The translations under genes were made by a program, and so were the position numbers. Below the pieces are notes generated by a model. It was not told the DNA's origin and did no database searches. It saw only the letters and a program-made list of their open reading frames with translations. DNA of 64,000 nucleotides from an uncultured Planctomycetales bacterium (GTDB lineage: Bacteria > Omnitrophota > Gorgyraeia > Zapsychrales > Zapsychraceae): positions 65,232 through 129,231 of the forward strand of contig CAZHWM010000012.1 in assembly GCA_964535935.1 (NCBI GenBank). The letters are read 5' to 3'. Below, piece after piece: positions 19,611 through 63,782 of this stretch. The stretch's first letter is position 1. Each line of letters starts with the position of its first letter.

Positions 19611-21899
19611 CTATTTTTTCTTATCCCATGCCAAGACAAGAGGTGAGGCAATAAAAATAGTAGAATATGTTCCTGCTACGAAACCAATAATTAAACAAAG
19701 GGCAAATGTATTTAAAACTTCTCCTCCTTTGAAAAATAATGAAAAGACAACCAATAGAGTAGTAAGTGTAGTTAAAATTGTCCTACCCAAAGTCTGATTA
19801 ATACTCATATTAATAAGTTCTGCTAACCTTTTTTTAGGGAATTTTGCCATATTTTCCCTAACGCGATCATATATAATTATAGTGTCATTGATAGAGTACC
19901 CAGCAATAGTGAGCAAGGCTGTTACCACCAAAAGATCTATCTGTCTTCCCAACATAACCGCAATTCCCAAAGTAACAAAGACATCATGTAATAATGCTAT
20001 AACACCAGCAGTTGCAAAATCAAAGTGCTTAAATCTAAAACCAATAAAAATAAGAATACCTCCCAAAGCAAAAATAACTGCAAAGATCGCCCTTTTCCGT
20101 AAGGCCTTTCCAACAACAGGGCCAACTTTTTCTATACGCAATATCTCAAATGGATTAGAAGGAAATGCCTTTGCAAAAGCAGCCACAACCTTCTTATATG
20201 TATCTTTTGATGTCCTAATAAGGACGTTCTCTGAAGAACCATTTCGTTTAACTGTCGACTTTTTTTCAGATAAACCAAGCTTCTCTAAGCCTTTGCTTAT
20301 CGCATCATCTGATGATGGTTTTGTTATCTGAATAACCGCATCCTCTATGCCTGCTTTATCCAACGACCTTCTTAATGTCTCAGCGTTAACGGGTTTCTTA
20401 AACCTATATTCCTGTATTTGGCCTCCTGCAAAATCAATACCATATGCCTTATCTTTCTTCTGCACTAAAGCAACGACACTGGCAATAATTACAAATATGG
20501 ATATTGCAAAACAGACAAATCGTTTCGAAACAAAATCTATCTTAGAATTTTTAAACAACTGAAGCATAGTAAGTGATTTCAAAAATCCCAACTCAAAAAA
20601 TAAATCAAAAAACGTCCTTGTTACAAAAAGGGCTGTAAAAAGGCTAACAACAAGTCCTATTGAAAGTGTTACTGCAAATCCTTTAATTGGCCCTGAACCG
20701 AACTGAAATAACATAAACGCGGCAATAAGAGTAGTAGAATTTGAATCAACTATAGCCTTAAGTGCCTTATTAAATCCATTATTTATGGCTGCCTTAATAG
20801 ATCTTCCATTGTTAATTTCTTCTCTGATACGTTCGTTAATCAATACATTAGCATCTACAGCCATACCAAGAGTAAGAATAATACCTGCTATACCCGGTAA
20901 GGTTAAAGTAAGTTGAGACTCTGGTAAAGTCAGATTAAGGAATCCCATAGTACCGAATATAAGCAAAATGTTTAATACCAGAGCTATGTCTGATATCAAT
21001 CCTGCCTTTAAATAATAAACCAGCATAAAAATAAGCACCAACGCACCGCCTATAATAGTAGCAGTAATACCAGCGTTAATTGAGTCACGGCCCAAAAGTG
21101 GGCCAATGGTTCTCTCTTCTTCTATATGCATAGGCGCAGGCAATGCACCTGAACGGAGGGCTAAAGCTAACATGGATGCCTCTTCATAATTAAATTGACC
21201 GGTTATTTGAGCACTGCCACTTAGAATAGGTTCTTTAATATTAGGAGCTGTCAAAACCTCACCATCCAAAATCGCAGCTAATCTTCTGCCTACATTCTTT
21301 CTTGTAATATCTGCAAACTTTTTTGCACCTTCCGCGTTAAATTTTAAAGAAATATATGGTTCCCCGAAACCTGTCTGATCAAAATCCACTCTTGCATCTA
21401 CGATTGTATCTCCGTTTAATGCCACCTTATCTTGAACTAATAATGGTTCAGGTTTTTCTGCTCCCGTCCTATCTTTTACATATTTTAGTATATAGCCTTT
21501 CGGAACTTTACCTTTCAATGCTTCCTTTAATTTTTCAGGGTCATCATTAACTAACCTAAACTCAAGCTGCGCAACCTTACCTATCATCTGAATAGCCTTG
21601 TCACGATCGGTTATTCCCGGTAACTGAACCAAAATTTCATCCTCTCCCTGCCTTTGAATAACAGTCTCCCCAACACCTAGGCTATCAATACGATTTCGCA
21701 ATATCTCAATAGCGCGTAAAACTGCATCCTTCTTAGCATTTTTATCCAATTTTTCAGTTTCAACCTTTAAAATAAGATGCATCCCACCCTTTAAATCAAG
21801 GCCTAAATTAATATGCTTTTCTACAGGGAAAGTAAGATATATTGCAGCCACCACCACCGCGATTATAACCAATAGCCTATTTCTCAAACTCTTTCGCAT
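19611..21899 (-). CDS. secDF: protein translocase subunit SecDF (fused)
   Basis: A 762-aa single ORF has a SecD-like periplasmic domain plus 6 TM (GLDLKGGMHL, QQGEDEILVQLPG) and then a SecF-like half (GIDFAGG, SINDTIIIYDRVREN). Confidence 0.9.
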   Translation of the reverse strand: MRKSLRNRLLVIIAVVVAAIYLTFPVEKHINLGLDLKGGMHLILKVETEKLDKNAKKDAVLRAIEILRNRIDSLGVGETVIQRQGEDEILVQLPGITDRDKAIQMIGKVAQLEFRLVNDDPEKLKEALKGKVPKGYILKYVKDRTGAEKPEPLLVQDKVALNGDTIVDARVDFDQTGFGEPYISLKFNAEGAKKFADITRKNVGRRLAAILDGEVLTAPNIKEPILSGSAQITGQFNYEEASMLALALRSGALPAPMHIEEERTIGPLLGRDSINAGITATIIGGALVLIFMLVYYLKAGLISDIALVLNILLIFGTMGFLNLTLPESQLTLTLPGIAGIILTLGMAVDANVLINERIREEINNGRSIKAAINNGFNKALKAIVDSNSTTLIAAFMLFQFGSGPIKGFAVTLSIGLVVSLFTALFVTRTFFDLFFELGFLKSLTMLQLFKNSKIDFVSKRFVCFAISIFVIIASVVALVQKKDKAYGIDFAGGQIQEYRFKKPVNAETLRRSLDKAGIEDAVIQITKPSSDDAISKGLEKLGLSEKKSTVKRNGSSENVLIRTSKDTYKKVVAAFAKAFPSNPFEILRIEKVGPVVGKALRKRAIFAVIFALGGILIFIGFRFKHFDFATAGVIALLHDVFVTLGIAVMLGRQIDLLVVTALLTIAGYSINDTIIIYDRVRENMAKFPKKRLAELINMSINQTLGRTILTTLTTLLVVFSLFFKGGEVLNTFALCLIIGFVAGTYSTIFIASPLVLAWDKKK

Positions 21900-49966: not shown

Positions 49967-50362
49967 TTATTTGGCAGCAGGAACTGCCATAGTTTTTTCT
50001 TCAACAGTATTATTTGCCTTAGCAGCTGTAGATATTGCAACTAATTCCTTTATTTTTGTTTCTAATTGTTTAATTGTATTATTAGCCTTATTTAATCTTT
50101 CACTCAAACTAGAATTATCTGATTTAACTTTCTTTAATATTCTATTTAGCTTTTGTATCTCTATATTAGTTTTCTTTATTTCGCCCTTTAAAGTTAAAAT
50201 TTTTTTATTTGCAAAAGACAAACTTTCTTCTGTCTTTATCCTTTTAAATCTTTCATTATTTAACTTTTGTTGCATCTCTATAGCATTCTGGGCATAACGA
50301 ATCACCAATCCTCCACTTATAACTATCAAAATAATTAATAAGGACATTATAAAGATTCTCAT
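49967..50362 (-). CDS. hypothetical membrane-anchored coiled-coil protein
   Basis: The N-terminal TM is IMSLLIILIVISGGLVI, followed by a continuous heptad-like K/L/N/E sequence. The gene lies immediately downstream of the OmpA-like gene. Confidence 0.45.
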   Translation of the reverse strand: MRIFIMSLLIILIVISGGLVIRYAQNAIEMQQKLNNERFKRIKTEESLSFANKKILTLKGEIKKTNIEIQKLNRILKKVKSDNSSLSERLNKANNTIKQLETKIKELVAISTAAKANNTVEEKTMAVPAAK

Positions 50363-50399
50363 TTCCTTACCGCCTTTCTTTTTGTTTAGTTTATATTAA

Positions 50400-51008
50400 T
50401 TATCGCCCCTTTTTAGTTGTGGGAGGAAGAATTACTATTTCTACACGTCTATTTTTTTGTCTACCAGCAGCTGTCTTATTCGAAGCCACTGGATGATATT
50501 CCCCATAACCTGTAGCTGTAAGACGCCTTGGGTCAACCTTTTTATGCTCAAGATAATGAAGTACACTTAAAGCTCTCGCTACAGATAGTTCCCAATTAGA
50601 TTTCCATTTTGAATATTTAATTGGAACATTATCAGTATGTCCTTCTATGCCCACAGAAGAATCCTTTACTGTAGTATTTAATACCTTTGCTACTTTATCT
50701 AATTTTTTATAGGCATCTTTTCTAAGGGTTGCCTTGCCAGAATCAAACAAAACCTCTGCAACAAAAGTTATCACAAGTCCCTTCTCTAACATCTCTACCT
50801 TAACCTCTTTATCATTTATCTCTTGTTTAAGACGCTGCTCCAGCTGAACTTTAGCCTTTTCCAACTCACTTAATTGTCTTTTCAATTTAGATAACTTTAC
50901 AACATCAATACGTCTACCTTTCTGAAATATAAAAGTACAGCCATTAGCGGCAAGACATATACTAACCACTGTAGTTATTAAGCCGAGATTCTTAAGGAAT
51001 TTAAACAT
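50400..51008 (-). CDS. OmpA/MotB-family peptidoglycan-binding (lipo)protein with a coiled-coil linker
   Basis: The signal/lipobox-like sequence is VVSICLAANGC. The OmpA_C motifs are IEGHTDNVPI, SNWELSVARALSV and RRVEIVI. Confidence 0.8.
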   Translation of the reverse strand: MFKFLKNLGLITTVVSICLAANGCTFIFQKGRRIDVVKLSKLKRQLSELEKAKVQLEQRLKQEINDKEVKVEMLEKGLVITFVAEVLFDSGKATLRKDAYKKLDKVAKVLNTTVKDSSVGIEGHTDNVPIKYSKWKSNWELSVARALSVLHYLEHKKVDPRRLTATGYGEYHPVASNKTAAGRQKNRRVEIVILPPTTKKGR

Positions 51009-56313: not shown

Positions 56314-56916
56314 CTAACTGCCCTCTGGACTGATTACTTCATCTACCAATCCATATTCCTTAGCCTCATAAGAACTCATAAAAAAATCTCTATCACAATC
56401 TTTTTCTATCTTTTCATAGGATTGTCCGCTGTGTTTGGAAAGCAGTTTAATAAGTTCATCTTTCATCCTTAATATTTCTTTTGCCTGTATAGATATGTCG
56501 CTTGCTGTCCCCTGCGCTCCACCCCATGGTTGATGTATCATAATCCTGGAATAAGGAAGAGCATATCTTTTACCTTTTGTTCCTGCAGATAACAAAAGAG
56601 ACCCCATACTAGCGGCCTGACCTATACAATAGGTGCATACGTCAGGTTTTACAAACTGCATTGTATCATATATAGCTAGTCCTGCAGTGACGGATCCCCC
56701 GGGTGTATTAATATATATATTTATATCTTTTGTGGCATCTTCACTCTGCAAAAATAGTAACTGTGCTATTATAAGATTTGCGACGTTATCGTCTATAGCT
56801 GTACCAATAAATATAATCCTCTCTTTCAAAAGTCGTGAATATATATCATAGGCACGTTCACCATGGCCTGTTTTTTCCACTACCATAGGTACCAATATCT
56901 GATTTTTTGTATCCAT
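56314..56916 (-). CDS. clpP: ATP-dependent Clp protease proteolytic subunit
   Basis: [14 protein letters not shown], the catalytic Ser in [11 protein letters not shown], and the His in MIHQPWGG are present. The ORF track begins at a TTG (56979). The ATG at 56916 is preceded by GAGGGGGGA and is the likely start. Confidence 0.95.
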
Positions 56917-56966
56917 TTTCCATCCCCCCTCATTATCATCATCCAAAAATATAATTTTAAAATAAT

Positions 56967-57854
56967 TTATGTTTGCCAATTTGCCTCTTTTAACAGAAAT
57001 TCCATAACTATGGGGACCAGTCTGTTATCATCTTTTATCTCTATCTCCTCCTGTTCAGCTATTTTCTCAAATATGAGAAATATTTTTACTTCTTTCTCTA
57101 TCTGTTCTTTTAAAATTTTACGCATATTTTCTTCTTTTTCATTAATATCTTTGGCAGGCATACCTTCTGATTTAGCCTTCTTTTTCCATTCAGATATTCT
57201 TCGTTCTATATGTTTGTTAATAAAAGATTGAGATATAGTTAATTGGGCCTTTTTAAGGATATGATTTATAATCTGTTGTTCTACATCTGCACGGTTATGT
57301 CTATCTTTATCTAAAGACATCTGGTTCCTCAATATCTTTTTAAACTCATCAAGATTGGCATACCCCAACTTATGTGCAAAGCTATCATCAATCTGATCTT
57401 CATCCTTAAGCCCCTGTCCCTTTTTGATATACTCCATAGTTTTTTCAAGTTCCTCATCTGTAACCTCTGAATCTTTTCTTTTTATTTTTATCCCTTTATA
57501 ATCCTTTATAGTAACTTCTGGTCTAATATCCAATATAGCTGTAAATTTTAAAATCCCATCATTAAGGCTTACATCTTTTATATCAGGCACATCTAATGGA
57601 ATTATTTTTTCCTTTTTAAGGCCTTCCTGATATACCTCTGGAATAAGTTTTTTTACTGCTTCCTCCCTAGCTACATCGCCATAATGTGCCTCCAATACCT
57701 GTTTTGGAACCTTCCCCGGCCTAAATCCTTTTACCTTAGCACGCTTCCCTATTTCTTTATATGCATCCTCAAGTTTTGGAAGAAATTTTTCCTTTGGAAC
57801 CTCAAATTTTAATTCTCGCTTACTTGGATCTAATTTTTTAACTTCAACTTTCAT
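56967..57854 (-). CDS. tig: trigger factor lacking the PPIase (FKBP) domain
   Basis: The N-terminal ribosome-binding domain carries the signature [13 protein letters not shown]. After the linker, ~[18 protein letters not shown] runs directly into C-domain-like sequence ([21 protein letters not shown]...). The length is 295 aa versus ~430 typical. Confidence 0.8.
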
Positions 57855-57953: not shown

Positions 57954-58682
57954 CTACATGCTGAATTTCTCTCCTAAATAAATTTTCCTTGCCTCTGGAT
58001 TATTTATTAAATCCTCAGCTGTCCCAGAAATTAAAATACGACCCTCAGCAATTAAATATGCTCTGTCTGTTATCGATAATGTTTCTCTCACATTATGATC
58101 TGTTAAAAGAATGCCTAACCCTCTGTTTTTTAATTCTTTTATAATTTCTTGCGCTTCACTAACCACTATAGGGTCTATCCCGGAAAAAGGCTCATCCAAT
58201 AAAATAAAAGATGGATTAGTAACAAGTGCACGTGTAATCTCAAGCCTTCGTCTTTCCCCACCGGATAGAGTATATGCCTTACTTTTAGCCAAATGAGCAA
58301 TATTAAGTTCTTCTAAAAGTGCATCCAATCTCCTTTGTCTCTCACGAGGACTTATATTAAGTGTTTCTAAAATAGACATGATATTCTCTTCTACTGTAAG
58401 CCTTCTAAAGATAGACGGTTCTTGAGAAAGATATCCCATTCCTAATCGACAACGTTCATGTATCGGCTTATTAGTGATATCTTCACTATCAAAGAATATC
58501 TTCCCTTCAGTAGGTTTGACGATCCCTACTACCATATAAAAAGTGGTAGTTTTACCTGCTCCATTGGGGCCAAGCAACCCTACTATCTCTGAACGGCCTA
58601 CAGAAATATTTACACCATCAACAACTTTTTTGCGGCCATAAACTTTTACGAGATTTTTAGTTTCTAATATGTGTAATGGCAT
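57954..58682 (-). CDS. lptB: LPS export ABC transporter ATP-binding protein
   Basis: GLLGPNGAGKTTTF, YLSQEPSIF, LSGGERRRLEITRAL and ILLDEPFSGIDP are present. Confidence 0.93.
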   Translation of the reverse strand: MPLHILETKNLVKVYGRKKVVDGVNISVGRSEIVGLLGPNGAGKTTTFYMVVGIVKPTEGKIFFDSEDITNKPIHERCRLGMGYLSQEPSIFRRLTVEENIMSILETLNISPRERQRRLDALLEELNIAHLAKSKAYTLSGGERRRLEITRALVTNPSFILLDEPFSGIDPIVVSEAQEIIKELKNRGLGILLTDHNVRETLSITDRAYLIAEGRILISGTAEDLINNPEARKIYLGEKFSM

Positions 58683-59520
58683 TTTCCCCCTCTGTTTGTA
58701 AAATTAATTTTGGCCGTCCTGAAAGTGTAATCTTCTTTGTTATAGCATCATAGATAGCCTGCTCTGCAAACGTCTTATTCTCCTTCTCTATTATTTCAAC
58801 ATTACCACTGCATATCATTTTTTTTATAGACTTCATATCAGGGTCAAAAAACACTTCTATCTTATCAGCTTTTAACTGCTGTTGATCCTGTATTGCCACA
58901 ACATTATTATTAAAAACTGCCACTGCTTTTTTTTGATCTATTTCCAAAGGTCCATCACAAGTAATCGTTACAAACTTTTTTATTTTTTTATCGGGTGTAG
59001 TATTAACCTTTACCTTTACATCAGTCTTTATCTGTGCGGTTTTAAGCCCAGGTCTGGCTTCCATTCCTTTACCAACAACAGTCATTCGTTTGTCCCTAAG
59101 CACAACTTTATCATCTGTGGAGACCAAGTCATCATCTCTTTTCCAATCAATATGATCTGTTTTTAACTGCGTTCCGTCTTCCGTAGTAATCACAACATCA
59201 TCTTCAAGTCGCATGTTTCCACTACTTTGGTCAATAATACCCGTATCAGCTTTTACATTCATTTTATTCTCATTATAGGTATTAGCATCCACATTAGACA
59301 ATTTTACCTTAGTGCCTACAACATCGGCAGTATCACCTTTGACCTCCCATGATTTATTTCCATTATTATCATATCCATGAAGCTGAAATCCTTGGAATTT
59401 TTGATCCACATTTTCTTCTGCATAAAGATTATTTATCTTATTTAAATTTAATCCTGCCAACAATACTACAACATATAACAAAATTTTAATATATAATAAT
59501 ATTTTCATTTCATTTCTCAC
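58657..59520 (-). CDS. membrane-anchored OstA-family LPS transport protein; LptC-like N-terminal half and LptA-like C-terminal half
   Basis: The TM anchor is ILLYIKILLYVVVLLAGL. The LptC-like segment is WEVKGDTADV...NMRLEDDVVITTEDGTQLKTDHIDW. The LptA/OstA-like segment is AVFNNNVVAIQDQQQLKADKIEVFF...GNVEIIEKENKTFAEQAIYD...ITLSGRP. The gene lies between kdsC and lptB. Confidence 0.65.
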   Translation of the reverse strand: MRNEMKILLYIKILLYVVVLLAGLNLNKINNLYAEENVDQKFQGFQLHGYDNNGNKSWEVKGDTADVVGTKVKLSNVDANTYNENKMNVKADTGIIDQSSGNMRLEDDVVITTEDGTQLKTDHIDWKRDDDLVSTDDKVVLRDKRMTVVGKGMEARPGLKTAQIKTDVKVKVNTTPDKKIKKFVTITCDGPLEIDQKKAVAVFNNNVVAIQDQQQLKADKIEVFFDPDMKSIKKMICSGNVEIIEKENKTFAEQAIYDAITKKITLSGRPKLILQTEGENAITHIRN

Positions 59521-59563: not shown

Positions 59564-60085
59564 TTAGAAGTTATTTAAGATTGACTCCCATTGCCCTTTA
59601 TTCTTAAGTATAAGTTCTACTGCTTCTCTTACCGCCCCCTCTCCTCCGCATCTAGTAGTAATATAATCAGCTGCCTGTTTTGCCTCAAATGAAGCATTTC
59701 TAGGTGCAATGGCAAGTCCTACTCGTTTAAATATACATATATCAGGAAGATCATCTCCTATAAAACATACTTCATAATCTTCCACTTGAAAAAATCTCGA
59801 CATATCCTCAAACGCCTCATCTTTAGGATAAGCGTTCTGATATACACGGTCTATTCTTAAATCTCTGGCACGTAAATCTATGGCAGCTGAGGACCTTGCA
59901 GAGATGATGGCTGTTTTTATACCTGCCTTTCTTAAAAGATGTATGCCCAGACCGTCACGAACATCAAAACTCTTTATCTCTCTGCCAGTATCATCTAGGA
60001 TAATTTTACCATTTGTAAGAACTCCATCTACATCAAGGCATACTACCTTAATTTTTTCTATTTTTTCTTTTAAATTAGTTTTCAT
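59564..60085 (-). CDS. kdsC: 3-deoxy-D-manno-octulosonate 8-phosphate phosphatase
   Basis: HAD motif I is VCLDVDGVLTNG. FDVRDGLGI and FIGDDLPD are also present. The length is 173 aa. Confidence 0.88.
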   Translation of the reverse strand: MKTNLKEKIEKIKVVCLDVDGVLTNGKIILDDTGREIKSFDVRDGLGIHLLRKAGIKTAIISARSSAAIDLRARDLRIDRVYQNAYPKDEAFEDMSRFFQVEDYEVCFIGDDLPDICIFKRVGLAIAPRNASFEAKQAADYITTRCGGEGAVREAVELILKNKGQWESILNNF

Positions 60086-60103
60086 TATAAAAATTTCCTA
60101 AAT

Positions 60104-61063
60104 TCAAACTAAACCAGCTTTTAAAATATCCTGGACATCTAATAATCCAACTAATTTATGTTTATTATCAATGACAGGCAATTCATCTATTTTTCTATCT
60201 TGTAATATTTTTAATGCATCTACTGCTAATCTATCCTTAGATATAGTTGCAGGATTTTTGGTCATTATATCTTTTACTTGTTTTGATAATATATCAGGGC
60301 TGGTTTCAAGATTACGCCTTAAATCTCCATCAGTAAAAATCCCTACAAATTTACCTTTTTTGTTAAGTATACAAGCAGATCCACACCTTGCTTTTGTAAT
60401 AGCCAATAACACATCTTTTATACAAGTATCCTCTTTAACCCGTGCAAACCTCCTACCTGTACGCATAAGATCTTCTACTTTTAGAAGAAGTTTCTTGCCA
60501 AGTGAACCCGCAGGATGAAAAAAGGCAAAATCTTCCTTTTTAAATCTTCTTCGAACAATAAGAGATGCGGCCAACGCATCTCCCATTGCTAATGTAGCAG
60601 TAGTAGATGCCATGGGAGCAAGTCCTAAAGGGCAACCTTCTTTTTCTACTGAAACATCCAGAACTATGTCACTATGTTTCGCCAATGCCGACTTAAGATT
60701 CCCTGTAACAGCAATGATTTTGGTCCTAATTCTTTTCACAAGAGGCAATATCTTTTTTATTTCCTCTGTTTCTCCACTATTAGAAATAATCAACAGAACA
60801 TCGTTTTTTGTAACCTGTCCTAGATCCCCATGAAGGGCCTCTGCACTATGCATCCACATACTAGGAGTTCCAGTAGAAGACAAAGTAGCAGCTATCTTTC
60901 TGCCTATAATACCTGTTTTGCCCATGCCTGTAACAATAACCCGACCTTTGCATTTAAGTATGGTATCCACTGCACTCTTAAAATTCTGATTTATTCTTGA
61001 AGTAAGGCGATTGATAGCCTCTGCTTCTATTTTGATTACCTCTTTTGCCTTATTTAGTGACAT
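60104..61063 (-). CDS. kdsD: arabinose-5-phosphate isomerase (SIS + tandem CBS)
   Basis: GRVIVTGMGKTGIIGRKIAATLSSTG and ISNSGETEE form the SIS domain. The C-terminal CBS pair includes IMTKNPATI and LPVID. Confidence 0.9.
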   Translation of the reverse strand: MSLNKAKEVIKIEAEAINRLTSRINQNFKSAVDTILKCKGRVIVTGMGKTGIIGRKIAATLSSTGTPSMWMHSAEALHGDLGQVTKNDVLLIISNSGETEEIKKILPLVKRIRTKIIAVTGNLKSALAKHSDIVLDVSVEKEGCPLGLAPMASTTATLAMGDALAASLIVRRRFKKEDFAFFHPAGSLGKKLLLKVEDLMRTGRRFARVKEDTCIKDVLLAITKARCGSACILNKKGKFVGIFTDGDLRRNLETSPDILSKQVKDIMTKNPATISKDRLAVDALKILQDRKIDELPVIDNKHKLVGLLDVQDILKAGLV

Positions 61064-61122
61064 ACGTATTTTGTTCCTAAAATTTTTATAATGATAACAC
61101 GTGATAAAATTAGATTATAAAA

Positions 61123-61959
61123 TCAAGATAGTGATTTTATAATTCTATCTATTTCTTTAAGGCAGAGCAGTAATTTTTCTAATTTGTTCAATTTTAACAT
61201 ATTGGCTCCATCGGATAAGGCCTCCTCAGGATTAGGATGAACCTCCATAAATATACCAGCACACCCTGCTGCTACTGCACATCTTGATAATAATGGGACA
61301 AATTCACTTTTGCCTCCTGTTGCAGTCCCAAGTCCACCCGGTTGTTGCACACTATGTGTTGAATCAAAAATAACAGGATACCCTATATTTGACATTATTG
61401 CTAGAGAACGGAAATCATTTATAAGATAATGATATCCAAAACTCGTGCCTCGTTCTGTAAGAAGTATTTTTTTATTTCCCGTAGCCTCTATCTTTTTTAC
61501 TGCCTGCTCCATATCCTCAGGTGCTAAAAATTGACCTTTTTTTATATTAACAACCTTCATTGTTCTCCCTGCGGCAATAAGTAGATCTGTTTGCCGACAC
61601 AAAAAAGCAGGGATTTGTATAATATCCAAGACCTCTGCAGCTTCTACAGCTTCATCAGGGGTATGGACATCGCTTAATATAGGAATATTTAGTTCCTTTT
61701 TTATTTTACTTAATATCTTTAATCCTTTTTTTATACCCGGACCACGAAAAGATTTTATTGAAGTCCTGTTGGCCTTATCATAACTTGCCTTGAATATAAA
61801 AGGAATATTAAGCTTTTGCGTAATCTTTTGAATATTAATTGCTATATTGAAAGTTAATTTTTCTTCTTCTATAACACATGGTCCTGCAATTAAAATAAAA
61901 TTATTTTTATTGCCTATATGTATATCGCCTATTTTTATTATTTTGATCCGTCTCTTCAT
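61123..61959 (-). CDS. kdsA: 3-deoxy-8-phosphooctulonate synthase
   Basis: LIAGPCVIE, FKASYDKANRTS, QIPAFLCRQTDLL, NIKKGQF and FDSTHSVQ are present. Confidence 0.95.
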   Translation of the reverse strand: MKRRIKIIKIGDIHIGNKNNFILIAGPCVIEEEKLTFNIAINIQKITQKLNIPFIFKASYDKANRTSIKSFRGPGIKKGLKILSKIKKELNIPILSDVHTPDEAVEAAEVLDIIQIPAFLCRQTDLLIAAGRTMKVVNIKKGQFLAPEDMEQAVKKIEATGNKKILLTERGTSFGYHYLINDFRSLAIMSNIGYPVIFDSTHSVQQPGGLGTATGGKSEFVPLLSRCAVAAGCAGIFMEVHPNPEEALSDGANMLKLNKLEKLLLCLKEIDRIIKSLS

Positions 61960-62681
61960 TTATTATTCAAAAATTTCTCTACCTTAATAATATCTTCAGG
62001 AACATCAACCCCTATGGTATCTATTTCCGTTATTACTGTTTTTATTTTATATCCTGCCTCAAGCACCCTTAGTTGTTCCAATCTCTCCGAGGCTTCAAGT
62101 CTTGATGATGGTAGCTGATTAAATTTTTTCAAAAAATCTTTTCTGTAGGCATATATACCCAGGTGTTTAAAATAGTCTATATTACTGCATGTCCTATTAT
62201 ATGGAATAATAGTCCTAGAGAAATACATAGCATTGCCATATCTATCAACGACTACTTTAACGACGTTAACATCCTGTAATTGCTCCTGAGATTCTATTTT
62301 TTTTATTGAAGTAGCCATAACAGCTGTACTATTTTTGATAAGGACAGATATTAAATTATCAATTATAGAATGATGTATTAACGGTTCATCTGCCTGTATA
62401 TTGACAATAATATCTGCATCAACATTAGCTGCTGCTTCGATGATTCTATCTGTCCCTGATGCATGTTTTTTCGAAGTCAATACAGCATTAGCCCCAAACC
62501 CCTTAGCTGCCTCTATAATCCTTTCATCATCACATGCAATAATAAGTTCATTTAGCAAGCTACTTTTCCCAGCATTTTCCCATACATGCTGGATCATTGG
62601 CCTATCTGCTATCTTAGCTAAAACTTTCCCTTTAAATCTACTCGCCTCCCAACGGGCTGGAATAATACCTACTGTTCTCAT
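61956..62681 (-). CDS. kdsB: 3-deoxy-manno-octulosonate cytidylyltransferase
   Basis: GIIPARWEASRFKGK, SGTDRI, VNIQADEPL and LEQLRVLEAG are present. An ATGA overlaps the kdsA start. Confidence 0.93.
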   Translation of the reverse strand: MRTVGIIPARWEASRFKGKVLAKIADRPMIQHVWENAGKSSLLNELIIACDDERIIEAAKGFGANAVLTSKKHASGTDRIIEAAANVDADIIVNIQADEPLIHHSIIDNLISVLIKNSTAVMATSIKKIESQEQLQDVNVVKVVVDRYGNAMYFSRTIIPYNRTCSNIDYFKHLGIYAYRKDFLKKFNQLPSSRLEASERLEQLRVLEAGYKIKTVITEIDTIGVDVPEDIIKVEKFLNNK

Positions 62682-62753: not shown

Positions 62754-63782
62754 TCACATCTCTTTTATTGCTCTAAGAAGTTCATTTTTCCCTATTGCCA
62801 CTGCCCCTATCTTTCCTACAACAATCCCTGCAGCAAGATTAGCAAGTCGTGCAGCATCCTTTTTATCTGCCCCAGTTGTAAGAGCCAGAGTAAAGACAGC
62901 AATCACTGTATCACCTGCACCACTTACATCATAGACTTCTCTGGCTTGAGTTTTTATAGAAAAGGGTTTTCTCCCTTTTTCAAACAACCTCATTCCGTCT
63001 TCACCTAAAGTGACAAGTAGTGCATCTGGCTCTAAAAGTCGTAAAATTTGTTTTGCTGCTATATCTATATCCTCTGTTGTTTTAAGTTTATTTGGCTTTA
63101 TATTAAGAATTTCTGTTCCATCACTCTGAAAGTTTAAATCTGTTACTGCATTTTCCAATTCTTTTTTATTAGGAGTTATTGCAGTTACATTTTTATAATA
63201 ATTAAAGTGTTCTATTTTAGGGTCAACAGTTATAATCTTCCCTTTTTGAATTGCTAGGGAACATATAAAAGATACAAGATTAGAGGTTATCATGCCTTTA
63301 CCATAATCAGATATAATAATAGCATCGACAGAATCTATCTTCTTTTGTATAAAATTAATAATTTTATCATTTATTTTAGGATCAGCACATGCCCTGCAAT
63401 CCTCTCTATCAACTCGTACAACCTGCTGATGTTGTGCGATAATTCTTGTCTTGGTTACTGTGGGTATATTTTTATCAACAAAAACACCAGTTGTCTCAAT
63501 ACCCTTTTCTTTTAAATCTTGTATCAGTGTTCTTCCATCAGTGTCAGCACCTATCCTTCCTACTTGAATTACCTTACTATCCAGGCTACTTAAATTATGT
63601 GCGACATTAGCTGCTCCTCCTATAGTATGAAAACAACGTTCTTCAACTACTACCGGGACAGGGGCCTCTGGAGATATACGTGAGACGCTTCCTTGAATAT
63701 ATCGGTCTAAGATGATATCTCCGATTACTAATATTCTTTTTCTTTTAAATTTTGAAATAACTGAAGAAAAATAATGCATCAT
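62754..63782 (-). CDS. hldA: D-glycero-beta-D-manno-heptose-7-phosphate kinase (RfaE/HldE domain I only)
   Basis: The ribokinase/PfkB fold has ILVIGDIILDRY, GGAANVAHNL and DVSGAGDTVIAVF. At 342 aa there is no fused adenylyltransferase domain. Confidence 0.85.
   Translation of the reverse strand: MMHYFSSVISKFKRKRILVIGDIILDRYIQGSVSRISPEAPVPVVVEERCFHTIGGAANVAHNLSSLDSKVIQVGRIGADTDGRTLIQDLKEKGIETTGVFVDKNIPTVTKTRIIAQHQQVVRVDREDCRACADPKINDKIINFIQKKIDSVDAIIISDYGKGMITSNLVSFICSLAIQKGKIITVDPKIEHFNYYKNVTAITPNKKELENAVTDLNFQSDGTEILNIKPNKLKTTEDIDIAAKQILRLLEPDALLVTLGEDGMRLFEKGRKPFSIKTQAREVYDVSGAGDTVIAVFTLALTTGADKKDAARLANLAAGIVVGKIGAVAIGKNELLRAIKEM

Follow-up and report, generated by a model that had tools for sequence, protein, structure and literature searches.

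What takes the place of LptC and LptA, two components of the lipopolysaccharide (LPS) transport bridge, when a single open reading frame (ORF) stands where two genes are expected? This question is raised by a locus in the 64-kb stretch of contig CAZHWM010000012.1 analyzed here as a whole (the window), in which one ORF occupies the slot after kdsC and before lptB, the order being kdsD-kdsC-[ORF]-lptB. In E. coli the bitopic LptC (191 amino acids, aa) and the periplasmic LptA (185 aa) are encoded by adjacent genes in the order kdsD-kdsC-lptC-lptA-lptB. A preliminary description of the window had claimed that the ORF codes for an LptC-LptA-type fusion filling the lptC+lptA slot. This core claim, an LptC jellyroll and an LptA-type jellyroll in one polypeptide, is supported by profile hidden Markov models (HMMs), by the predicted fold, by 120 out of the 120 best homologues and by 80 out of 80 related loci. 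The complete reading, to which we assign a probability of roughly 80%, is that an LptC jellyroll and one OstA/LptA-type jellyroll form a single periplasmic polypeptide, which is encoded in a kdsBADC-[lptC-lptA]-lptB operon, is translationally coupled to lptB and works as a bridge in the manner proposed below.

The ORF is found as previously described at positions 58657..59520 of the minus strand, where its longest form begins with GTG at 59520 and codes for 287 aa. An in-frame ATG at 59508, four codons after this GTG, yields a 283-aa product (58657..59508, minus strand). The shorter form is the choice of the public gene callers: the database protein P0001, which is 100% identical to the window protein, has a length of 283 aa in the gene calls of independent assemblies. 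By our own reading of the sequence, the DNA preceding ATG 59508 is purine-rich and that preceding GTG 59520 is AT-rich. ATG 59508 is more likely to be the start of the fusion gene than GTG 59520.

The N-terminal half of the protein is matched by Pfam LptC (PF06835) over residues 21–170 with 60.1 bits (gathering cut-off 21) and by the NCBIfam LptC equivalog TIGR04409 with 76.2 bits (cut-off 38), the latter match spanning profile positions 6–179 of 180. This half is therefore LptC by curated criteria. The C-terminal half is matched by Pfam LptD_N/OstA (PF03968) over residues 192–273 with 50.5 bits (gathering cut-off 20.4; profile positions 7–94 of 113). The domain split suggested earlier, with LptC at residues ~40–175 and OstA at ~185–287, is borne out by these boundaries, and an LptC-only protein devoid of an OstA match, the alternative considered at that time, is excluded since both domains lie above their gathering cut-offs. 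Pfam gives no match to the LptD barrel domain in the fusion protein, whose chain ends ~14 aa past the OstA module, and no LptF/G permease helices in it.

Several observations weigh against a full identification of the C-terminal half with LptA. The NCBIfam LptA equivalog TIGR03002 aligns with residues 183–273 (profile positions 9–103 of 142) at 47.3 bits, below its cut-off of 71.7; the OstA module comprises ~90 aa compared with ~130–140 aa for the LptA chains among the PDB matches; and the family profile finds only marginal matches (E ~0.17) among PDB sequences, to a solved LptA (8onu) and to LptC. These marginal matches are positioned as expected: E. coli LptC is aligned at its C-terminal end with the N-terminal half, and LptA residues 20–100 are aligned with the C-terminal half. 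As the PF03968 cut-off is passed but that of TIGR03002 is missed, the C-terminal half is called here an LptA-type module and not a proven LptA orthologue.

It might be argued from the low TIGR03002 score, and from the plain name 'LptC' which the NCBI annotation pipeline PGAP gives to homologues, that the protein is an ordinary long LptC with a C-terminal extension having no LptA-equivalent role. This is very unlikely. The family matched by the C-terminal half is PF03968, not PF06835; this half lies in the exact lptA slot before lptB, and relatives of the protein repeat the same module 2–5 times. Moreover, HHalign comparison of the two halves gives a probability of 2.5% and ~24% identity over 46 columns; the halves are only faintly alike, so the second is no recent copy of the first, and together with the different Pfam families this rules out a recent internal duplication of LptC. 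The orthologues are likewise not ordinary long LptC proteins, as all of them carry the OstA module. In every homologue examined this domain starts ~9 aa after the LptC jellyroll and is never a free protein with its own signal peptide. At the DNA level the OstA half is encoded by the 3' part of the ORF, whose end lies within lptB, and so stands between the lptC part and lptB.

Since the sequence search of the PDB is marginal, a structure-based search was required. The AlphaFold2 (AF2) model of the fusion, built with 58 homologues, has a mean pLDDT (predicted local distance difference test) of 88.8 and a pTM (predicted template modeling score) of 0.76. It consists of an N-terminal helix (residues 2–25), nine long strands (36–169), a loop of ~9 residues and eight strands (179–269), so that an uninterrupted series of ~17 β-strands extends over residues 36–269; the C-terminal tail (275–283) is disordered with pLDDT <50. 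The two consecutive jellyrolls which the preliminary description expected from a structure prediction thus appear as 9 + 8 strands in one series. On the minus strand of the window, the LptC-type β-jellyroll (residues ~40–173 in the numbering of the 287-aa form, supported by PF06835, TIGR04409, AF2 and Foldseek) corresponds to positions 59002..59403, the inter-domain linker of ~9 aa to 58975..59001, and the OstA/LptA-type β-jellyroll module (residues ~183–273 in the same numbering, supported by PF03968 and Foldseek) to 58702..58974. The pLDDT is ~80 in the linker block and 95–97 on either side of it.

Foldseek comparison of the model with the PDB at E<=1e-3 returns exclusively Lpt proteins, namely LptC, the LptD N-terminal domain and LptH; the first non-Lpt match has rank 28. 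The LptC chains originate from LptB2FGC complexes (6mit_C with E=7.7e-6 and a target-normalized TM-score of 0.67, and 6mjp_C), and the alignment with 6mit_C covers 173 columns of this 175-residue full-length LptC chain. For 9doq_C the root-mean-square deviation is 2.6 Å over 127 columns. LptD is represented by 8h1s_A, 9ia0_A and 4q35_A, and LptH by 4uu4, while the LptA chains 2r1a and 2r19 lie just above E 1e-3. With its short and constant length, the linker is in keeping with a rigid double jellyroll that runs on without a break, and not with two tethered domains. The strand pattern and the pTM suggest that the hydrophobic groove may be continuous across the LptC/OstA junction; the indirect character of this basis counts against that part of the reading.

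A protein identical to that of the window, with the same neighbours, is present in an ENA metagenome contig (113 kb), in the NCBI assembly GCA_006243085.1 and in a Logan assembly. The homology search gives 419 matches at E<=1e-3, and the domain and length figures refer to the best 120 of these 419: all have both Pfam domains and a length of 255–304 aa. The linker between the domains has 9–12 aa in 115 of the 120, its sequence being variable and its length constrained. The named sources among them are Candidatus Omnitrophota/Omnitrophica metagenome-assembled genomes (MAGs). Product names of the homologues are 'LptC' in the case of PGAP and, for several JGI entries, 'LptC/lipopolysaccharide transport protein LptA'. 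Statistics on the locus come from 80 loci found in a scan of GTDB species representatives, each taken with ±10 kb flanks; the LptC and OstA domains lie inside one ORF in all 80, and the phylum-level labels among them are Omnitrophota. At a larger scale, a profile search of 1.84 billion representative proteins yields 199 clusters at E<=1e-30, nearly all of which, among those listed, are 250–310 aa long with both domains covered. Named clusters sampled down the profile ranking belong to Omnitrophota, with one labelled Elusimicrobiota. The closest named relatives of the window protein are 52–60% identical to it. As homologues, GTDB loci and sampled clusters carry the Omnitrophota label, the window organism is an uncultured member of this phylum, and the fusion gene is real and vertically conserved in Candidatus Omnitrophota.

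These data also dispose of a concern raised in the preliminary description, that two genes might have been merged at 58.9–59.1 kb. The chance that an assembly or frameshift artefact created the fusion is negligible: the ENA, NCBI and Logan assemblies, which are independent, contain the identical protein, the gene is a single ORF in 80 of 80 species-level genomes, and the conserved linker length and the confident continuous model point the same way. The merged-gene explanation, in favour of which nothing was found, is therefore ruled out.

A matter of labelling should be mentioned at this point. Many GTDB representative MAGs with the fusion gene (L009, L019, L028 and others in our list of loci) are bulk-submitted bins named 'uncultured Planctomycetales bacterium'. 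Such names on Omnitrophota-type loci could mislead taxonomic summaries.

The position of the gene is as well conserved as its architecture. lptB follows the fusion immediately in 79 of the 80 loci, and kdsC or kdsD precedes it in 78. The 26-nt overlap of the ORF with lptB, noticed earlier, is confirmed both on the DNA and in the gene calls. The 3' end of the fusion gene reads ...ACA GAG GGG GAA AAT GCC ATT ACA CAT ATT AGA AAC TAA; the ATG of lptB (58682) is embedded in AAT-GCC, and GAGGGGG (58686..58692) is located just upstream. The C-terminal tail of the fusion (QTEGENAITHIRN, followed by the stop codon; 58657..58701, minus strand) is predicted to be disordered and at the same time holds this Shine-Dalgarno sequence and start codon of lptB. 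An overlap of 20–38 nt is found in 53 of the 79 loci, 26 nt being the commonest value (28 loci), and a Shine-Dalgarno-like motif precedes the lptB start in 65 of the 79.

The tail contains a conserved 'TEGEN' motif (58686..58701) coinciding with the Shine-Dalgarno sequence and the start codon of lptB. As this motif is conserved yet predicted to be disordered, and overlaps the ribosome-binding site of lptB, its conservation is probably at least partly nucleotide-level, the constraint being the placement of that site inside the codons of the fusion. Judged from this arrangement of the DNA, the overlap together with the embedded ribosome-binding site implies that the periplasmic module and the LptB ATPase are translationally coupled.

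The neighbours lptB, kdsC and kdsD had been named in the same order before, and each of them scores above its NCBIfam cut-off: lptB, the LPS exporter ATPase (57954..58682, minus strand), with 361.6 bits for TIGR04406 (cut-off 240), kdsC (59564..60085, minus strand) with 157.8 bits for TIGR01670 (cut-off 106.95), and kdsD (60104..61063, minus strand) with 338.7 bits for TIGR00393 (cut-off 203.7). They are followed upstream by kdsA (61123..61959, minus strand) and kdsB (61956..62681, minus strand), so the complete kdsB-kdsA-kdsD-kdsC set for biosynthesis of 3-deoxy-D-manno-octulosonic acid (Kdo; 59564..62681) is directly upstream of the fusion on the same strand. A PfkB-family sugar kinase gene lies at 62754..63782. 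Further upstream, on the longer source contig, there are four heptosyltransferase-family (Glyco_transf_9) genes and other glycosyltransferase genes. The Kdo and heptosyltransferase-family genes around the fusion make it part of a large LPS core/Kdo cluster, and these genes for Kdo and heptose, within the operon and farther along the contig, argue for LPS as the cargo.

Some features of the remaining part of the window may be noted here. From ~3.7 kb to 64 kb almost all genes are on the minus strand; the GC content is 26–39%, and all 2-kb bins from ~2 kb on have a negative GC skew, its cumulative value being -6.8. Owing to the strand bias and the uniformly negative skew, the window probably lies inside a single replichore. 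The trigger factor ORF (56967..57854, minus strand) codes for only 295 aa and has Pfam matches to Trigger_N and Trigger_C only; the precomputed matches contain no FKBP-type peptidyl-prolyl isomerase domain between the two. This ORF overlaps the annotated clpP ORF (56314..56979) by 13 nt. SecD and SecF are joined in a single SecDF fusion of 762 aa (19611..21899, minus strand) directly after yajC.

The fate of the N-terminus is less clear than the rest of the protein. An N-terminal transmembrane anchor had been assigned to the ORF. The hydrophobic segment is indeed present (MKILLYIKILLYVVVLLAGLNLNKINNLYA, followed by EE; 59431..59508, minus strand), but its role as an anchor is not established, because a Sec signal peptide that is cleaved off would account for its features equally well or better. 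In 116 homologues a median of 27 aa precede the LptC domain, and the longest run of hydrophobic or small residues in this region has a median of 15. A hydrophobic core and then an A-x-A-type site occur in 162 of 172 family members, with Ala at position -1 in 120; the site is followed by Q/E/D-E/D, and its median position is 23 (n=172). Sec/SPase I signal peptides show this pattern. Of 186 family sequences only 4 have a lipobox, so that it is practically missing. It counts against the signal-peptide assignment that the calls were made with our own permissive pattern heuristic and not with SignalP.

The segment may instead be an uncleaved signal anchor, which would insert between LptF and LptG like the transmembrane helix of E. 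coli LptC and keep the fusion in the membrane. Residues 3–22 of the window protein (ILLYIKILLYVVVLLAGLNL) could span the membrane if Lys8 snorkels; a similar segment, in which AYA or LYA is followed by E, is present in triple fusions with an LpxL-like domain (see below), where it must cross the membrane; and Foldseek aligns the model across nearly all of the full-length LptC chain 6mit_C. On the other side stand the short hydrophobic core and the A-x-A-type site followed by D/E/Q of the family. The true anchor looks different as well: relatives with multiple OstA domains have ~22 hydrophobic residues and then K/R-E-P-P with no A-x-A site, i.e. a classical LptC-type signal anchor. The AF2 helix fails to discriminate and lends the anchor no support, since signal peptides are modeled as helices too. 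We put the membrane-anchored form at somewhat below even odds and lean slightly toward cleavage of the segment, on sequence features of the family; the canonical LptC transmembrane anchor is probably lacking in the fusion.

If the segment is cleaved, the product is a soluble double jellyroll kept at the inner membrane only through docking of its jellyroll on LptF. Such attachment is plausible because E. coli LptC without its transmembrane helix still binds LptB2FG via the jellyroll (PMC9972910).

The following mechanism can be proposed for the single-chain bridge. The fusion would be exported through its N-terminal Sec signal, and its LptC half would dock edge-to-edge on the LptF jellyroll of LptB2FG. 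The fusion would bind LptF and take LPS from LptB2FG. Prolonging the hydrophobic groove, the OstA half would lead toward the LptD N-terminal jellyroll, either by itself or via further LptA units; from the domain order and the family it is expected to bridge LptC to this LptD domain. The simplest chain would then be LptB2FG -> [LptC-OstA fusion] -> LptD(N)/LptE. With both modules in one chain, the contact between the LptC C-terminus and the LptA N-terminus, which is non-covalent in E. coli, would be hard-wired at 1:1. In the known bridge the C-terminus of LptC meets the N-terminus of LptA, and LptA meets the N-terminal domain of LptD (preprint 10.1101/2022.12.21.521298); the C-then-A order of domains in the fusion agrees with this head-to-tail polarity.

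Whether the fused module is the only LptA-type unit depends on the existence of a separate lptA. Lineage-specific HMMs of each half find no second LptC/OstA gene in the 64-kb window, and with a broad OstA profile, for which 577 domain instances were used in the iteration, the window and the flanking DNA (80 x 20 kb, ~1.5 Mb of Omnitrophota sequence) likewise give no second OstA gene. Two points weigh against the single-chain bridge here. The search covered the window and the ±10 kb flanks of the 80 related loci, so a free lptA may be situated farther off; and Pfam annotation of essentially the whole window reveals no lptD, lptF, lptG or other gene for an OstA protein, so that the partners are assumed.

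Accordingly, the fusion may be the first segment of the bridge, with one or more free LptA proteins encoded elsewhere polymerizing between the fused OstA module and LptD. The confined range of the search leaves room for this; the fused module is short in comparison with the LptA chains of the PDB, and some Omnitrophota relatives add a second OstA module (P0129, NQT91039.1), as if one were perhaps insufficient. It is opposed by the lack of a second OstA/LptC-like ORF in the window and in the 80 x 20 kb even with the iterated profile. In vivo, E. coli does not strictly require a stable LptA oligomer (PMC5575297). Most Omnitrophota cells measure ~0.2 μm (PMC10066038), and cells of this size might have an envelope so narrow that a short bridge suffices. 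With these two observations a single LptA-type unit is plausible. The first-segment arrangement is an appreciable possibility, albeit clearly a minority one. The strictest form of the single-chain bridge, in which a single covalent double jellyroll, perhaps soluble, covers the whole distance between LptB2FG and LptD in Omnitrophota and free LptA is lacking, is a tentative idea and, on balance, rather unlikely.

One further ORF was tried as an OstA candidate and rejected: that at 49970..50395 (minus strand, 131 aa), the sole and very weak match of the broad OstA profile (E 0.14), with no Lpt-related Pfam match above cut-off. No Pfam family at all exceeds its cut-off in this ORF, which has sub-threshold matches of coiled-coil type only, and it adjoins an OmpA-family gene (50400..51008, minus strand). 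It is probably unrelated to Lpt.

Relatives with other architectures share the N-terminal LptC + OstA unit with the window protein at profile E-values of 1e-40 to 1e-70. Two of them combine LptC with two OstA domains, namely P0129 (415 aa, NQT91039.1, from a Candidatus Omnitrophota MAG) and P0200 (417 aa); since the former originates from this phylum, fused bridge modules differ in number among the Omnitrophota themselves. LptC with 3–5 OstA domains is found in chains of 680–1046 aa (P0138, P0145, P0207, P0218, P0227, P0243, P0250, P0252, P0253 and P0264), to which P0279 also belongs, and which have a clear 22-aa N-terminal anchor. Loci with genomic context are available for long multi-OstA chains at L087:4181-6913 and L088:5562-8201. 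Neither of the two long chains whose context was examined, P0145 and P0279, adjoins lptB; P0279 directly follows a YhdP/AsmA-like gene, and the contig of P0145 looks like one of the Planctomycetes-Verrucomicrobia-Chlamydiae group. The long chains could be single-polypeptide Lpt bridges.

A third type of architecture consists of PF03279 (an LpxL-like lipid A late acyltransferase), a hydrophobic segment, LptC and OstA. These triple fusions (P0191 of 576 aa, P0223 of 610 aa and P0260 of 643 aa) fall into three separate clusters at 50% identity, and one of them has full-length NCBI, ENA and Logan copies. Proteins of this kind would tie an enzyme of lipid A acylation physically to the export bridge. 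The multi-OstA relatives support the reading of the C-terminal half of the window protein as a modular bridge unit, and the relatives taken together suggest a graded series of covalent bridges, in which the window protein, with its one module, is the smallest member.

Comparison with known systems shows what is shared and what differs. The fusion resembles E. coli LptC and LptA in operon position, β-jellyroll folds, C-then-A order and the downstream lptB. It differs in that it is one polypeptide with a fixed linker of ~9 aa and not two proteins; its LptA-type module is shorter (~90 aa) than LptA, its N-terminus is signal-peptide-like in place of the 20-aa transmembrane helix of LptC, and its gene shares 26 nt with lptB, whose ribosome-binding site lies inside the coding sequence of the fusion. 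Covalently attached Lpt jellyrolls have natural precedents in LptD, where an N-terminal OstA jellyroll (PF03968) is joined to an outer-membrane barrel, and in LptF/LptG, where a jellyroll is inserted in a membrane protein; unlike these, the fusion joins two bridge modules to each other and has neither barrel nor permease helices. The multi-OstA and LpxL-containing relatives are in turn unlike the window protein, the long LptC-(OstA)2-5 chains (680–1046 aa) having the 22-aa anchor and, in the two examined, a location away from lptB, and the triple fusions having an extra N-terminal lipid A acyltransferase domain.

A canonical transmembrane helix is not the sole mode of LptC attachment in other bacteria either, as demonstrated by the E. 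coli LptC deprived of this helix (PMC9972910) and by LptC of Borrelia burgdorferi, which is proposed to be a lipoprotein and predicted to be lipid-anchored (preprint 10.1101/2022.12.21.521298). In contrast to the fusion, both are single-domain proteins acting with a separate LptA, and the lipobox is essentially absent in the fusion family.

The Lpt pathway and its constituent folds are already known, and the two-domain content of the protein has been flagged by Pfam architecture and JGI product names. The departures from the E. coli paradigm consist in the covalent joining of LptC to an LptA-type module by a fixed short linker, the shortness of the OstA module, the embedded ribosome-binding site of lptB and the probable lack of a canonical transmembrane anchor. 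No description of a natural LptC-LptA fusion was found in the literature searched, and an earlier mention, e.g. in subscription journals, is possible; 'LptCA' in the literature denotes an operon, the LptC-AA point mutant or the LptCAD bridge. The Omnitrophota genome literature examined (including PMC10066038) makes no mention of LPS transport. Because PGAP names the genes only 'LptC', surveys of Lpt genes may score lptA as absent from Omnitrophota.

The number of LptA units spanning the periplasm is still debated. The Lpt bridge is also an antibiotic target, thanatin and macrocyclic peptides being directed against the transporter or against the contacts LptC-LptA and LptA-LptA. The fusion will not surprise specialists, yet it is useful with regard to the polarity, stoichiometry and length of the bridge. 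Its phylum-wide occurrence is independent 'Rosetta-stone' evidence for the C-to-A head-to-tail polarity and for a functional 1:1 unit, and the protein offers a stable single-chain construct for structural study of the LptC-LptA junction. Compounds disrupting the LptC-LptA interface would have no target in the fusion lineages. Together with its LptC-(OstA)n relatives, the fusion makes the relation between bridge length and envelope geometry testable. If the fusion is truly the sole covalent bridge, the presence of 1, 2 or 3–5 OstA modules would constitute a genetically encoded ruler with the count set by the width of the envelope, and comparative genomics would answer how many LptA units a bridge needs. 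The LpxL-LptC-OstA fusions would in that case imply that the last step of lipid A acylation is physically coupled to export.

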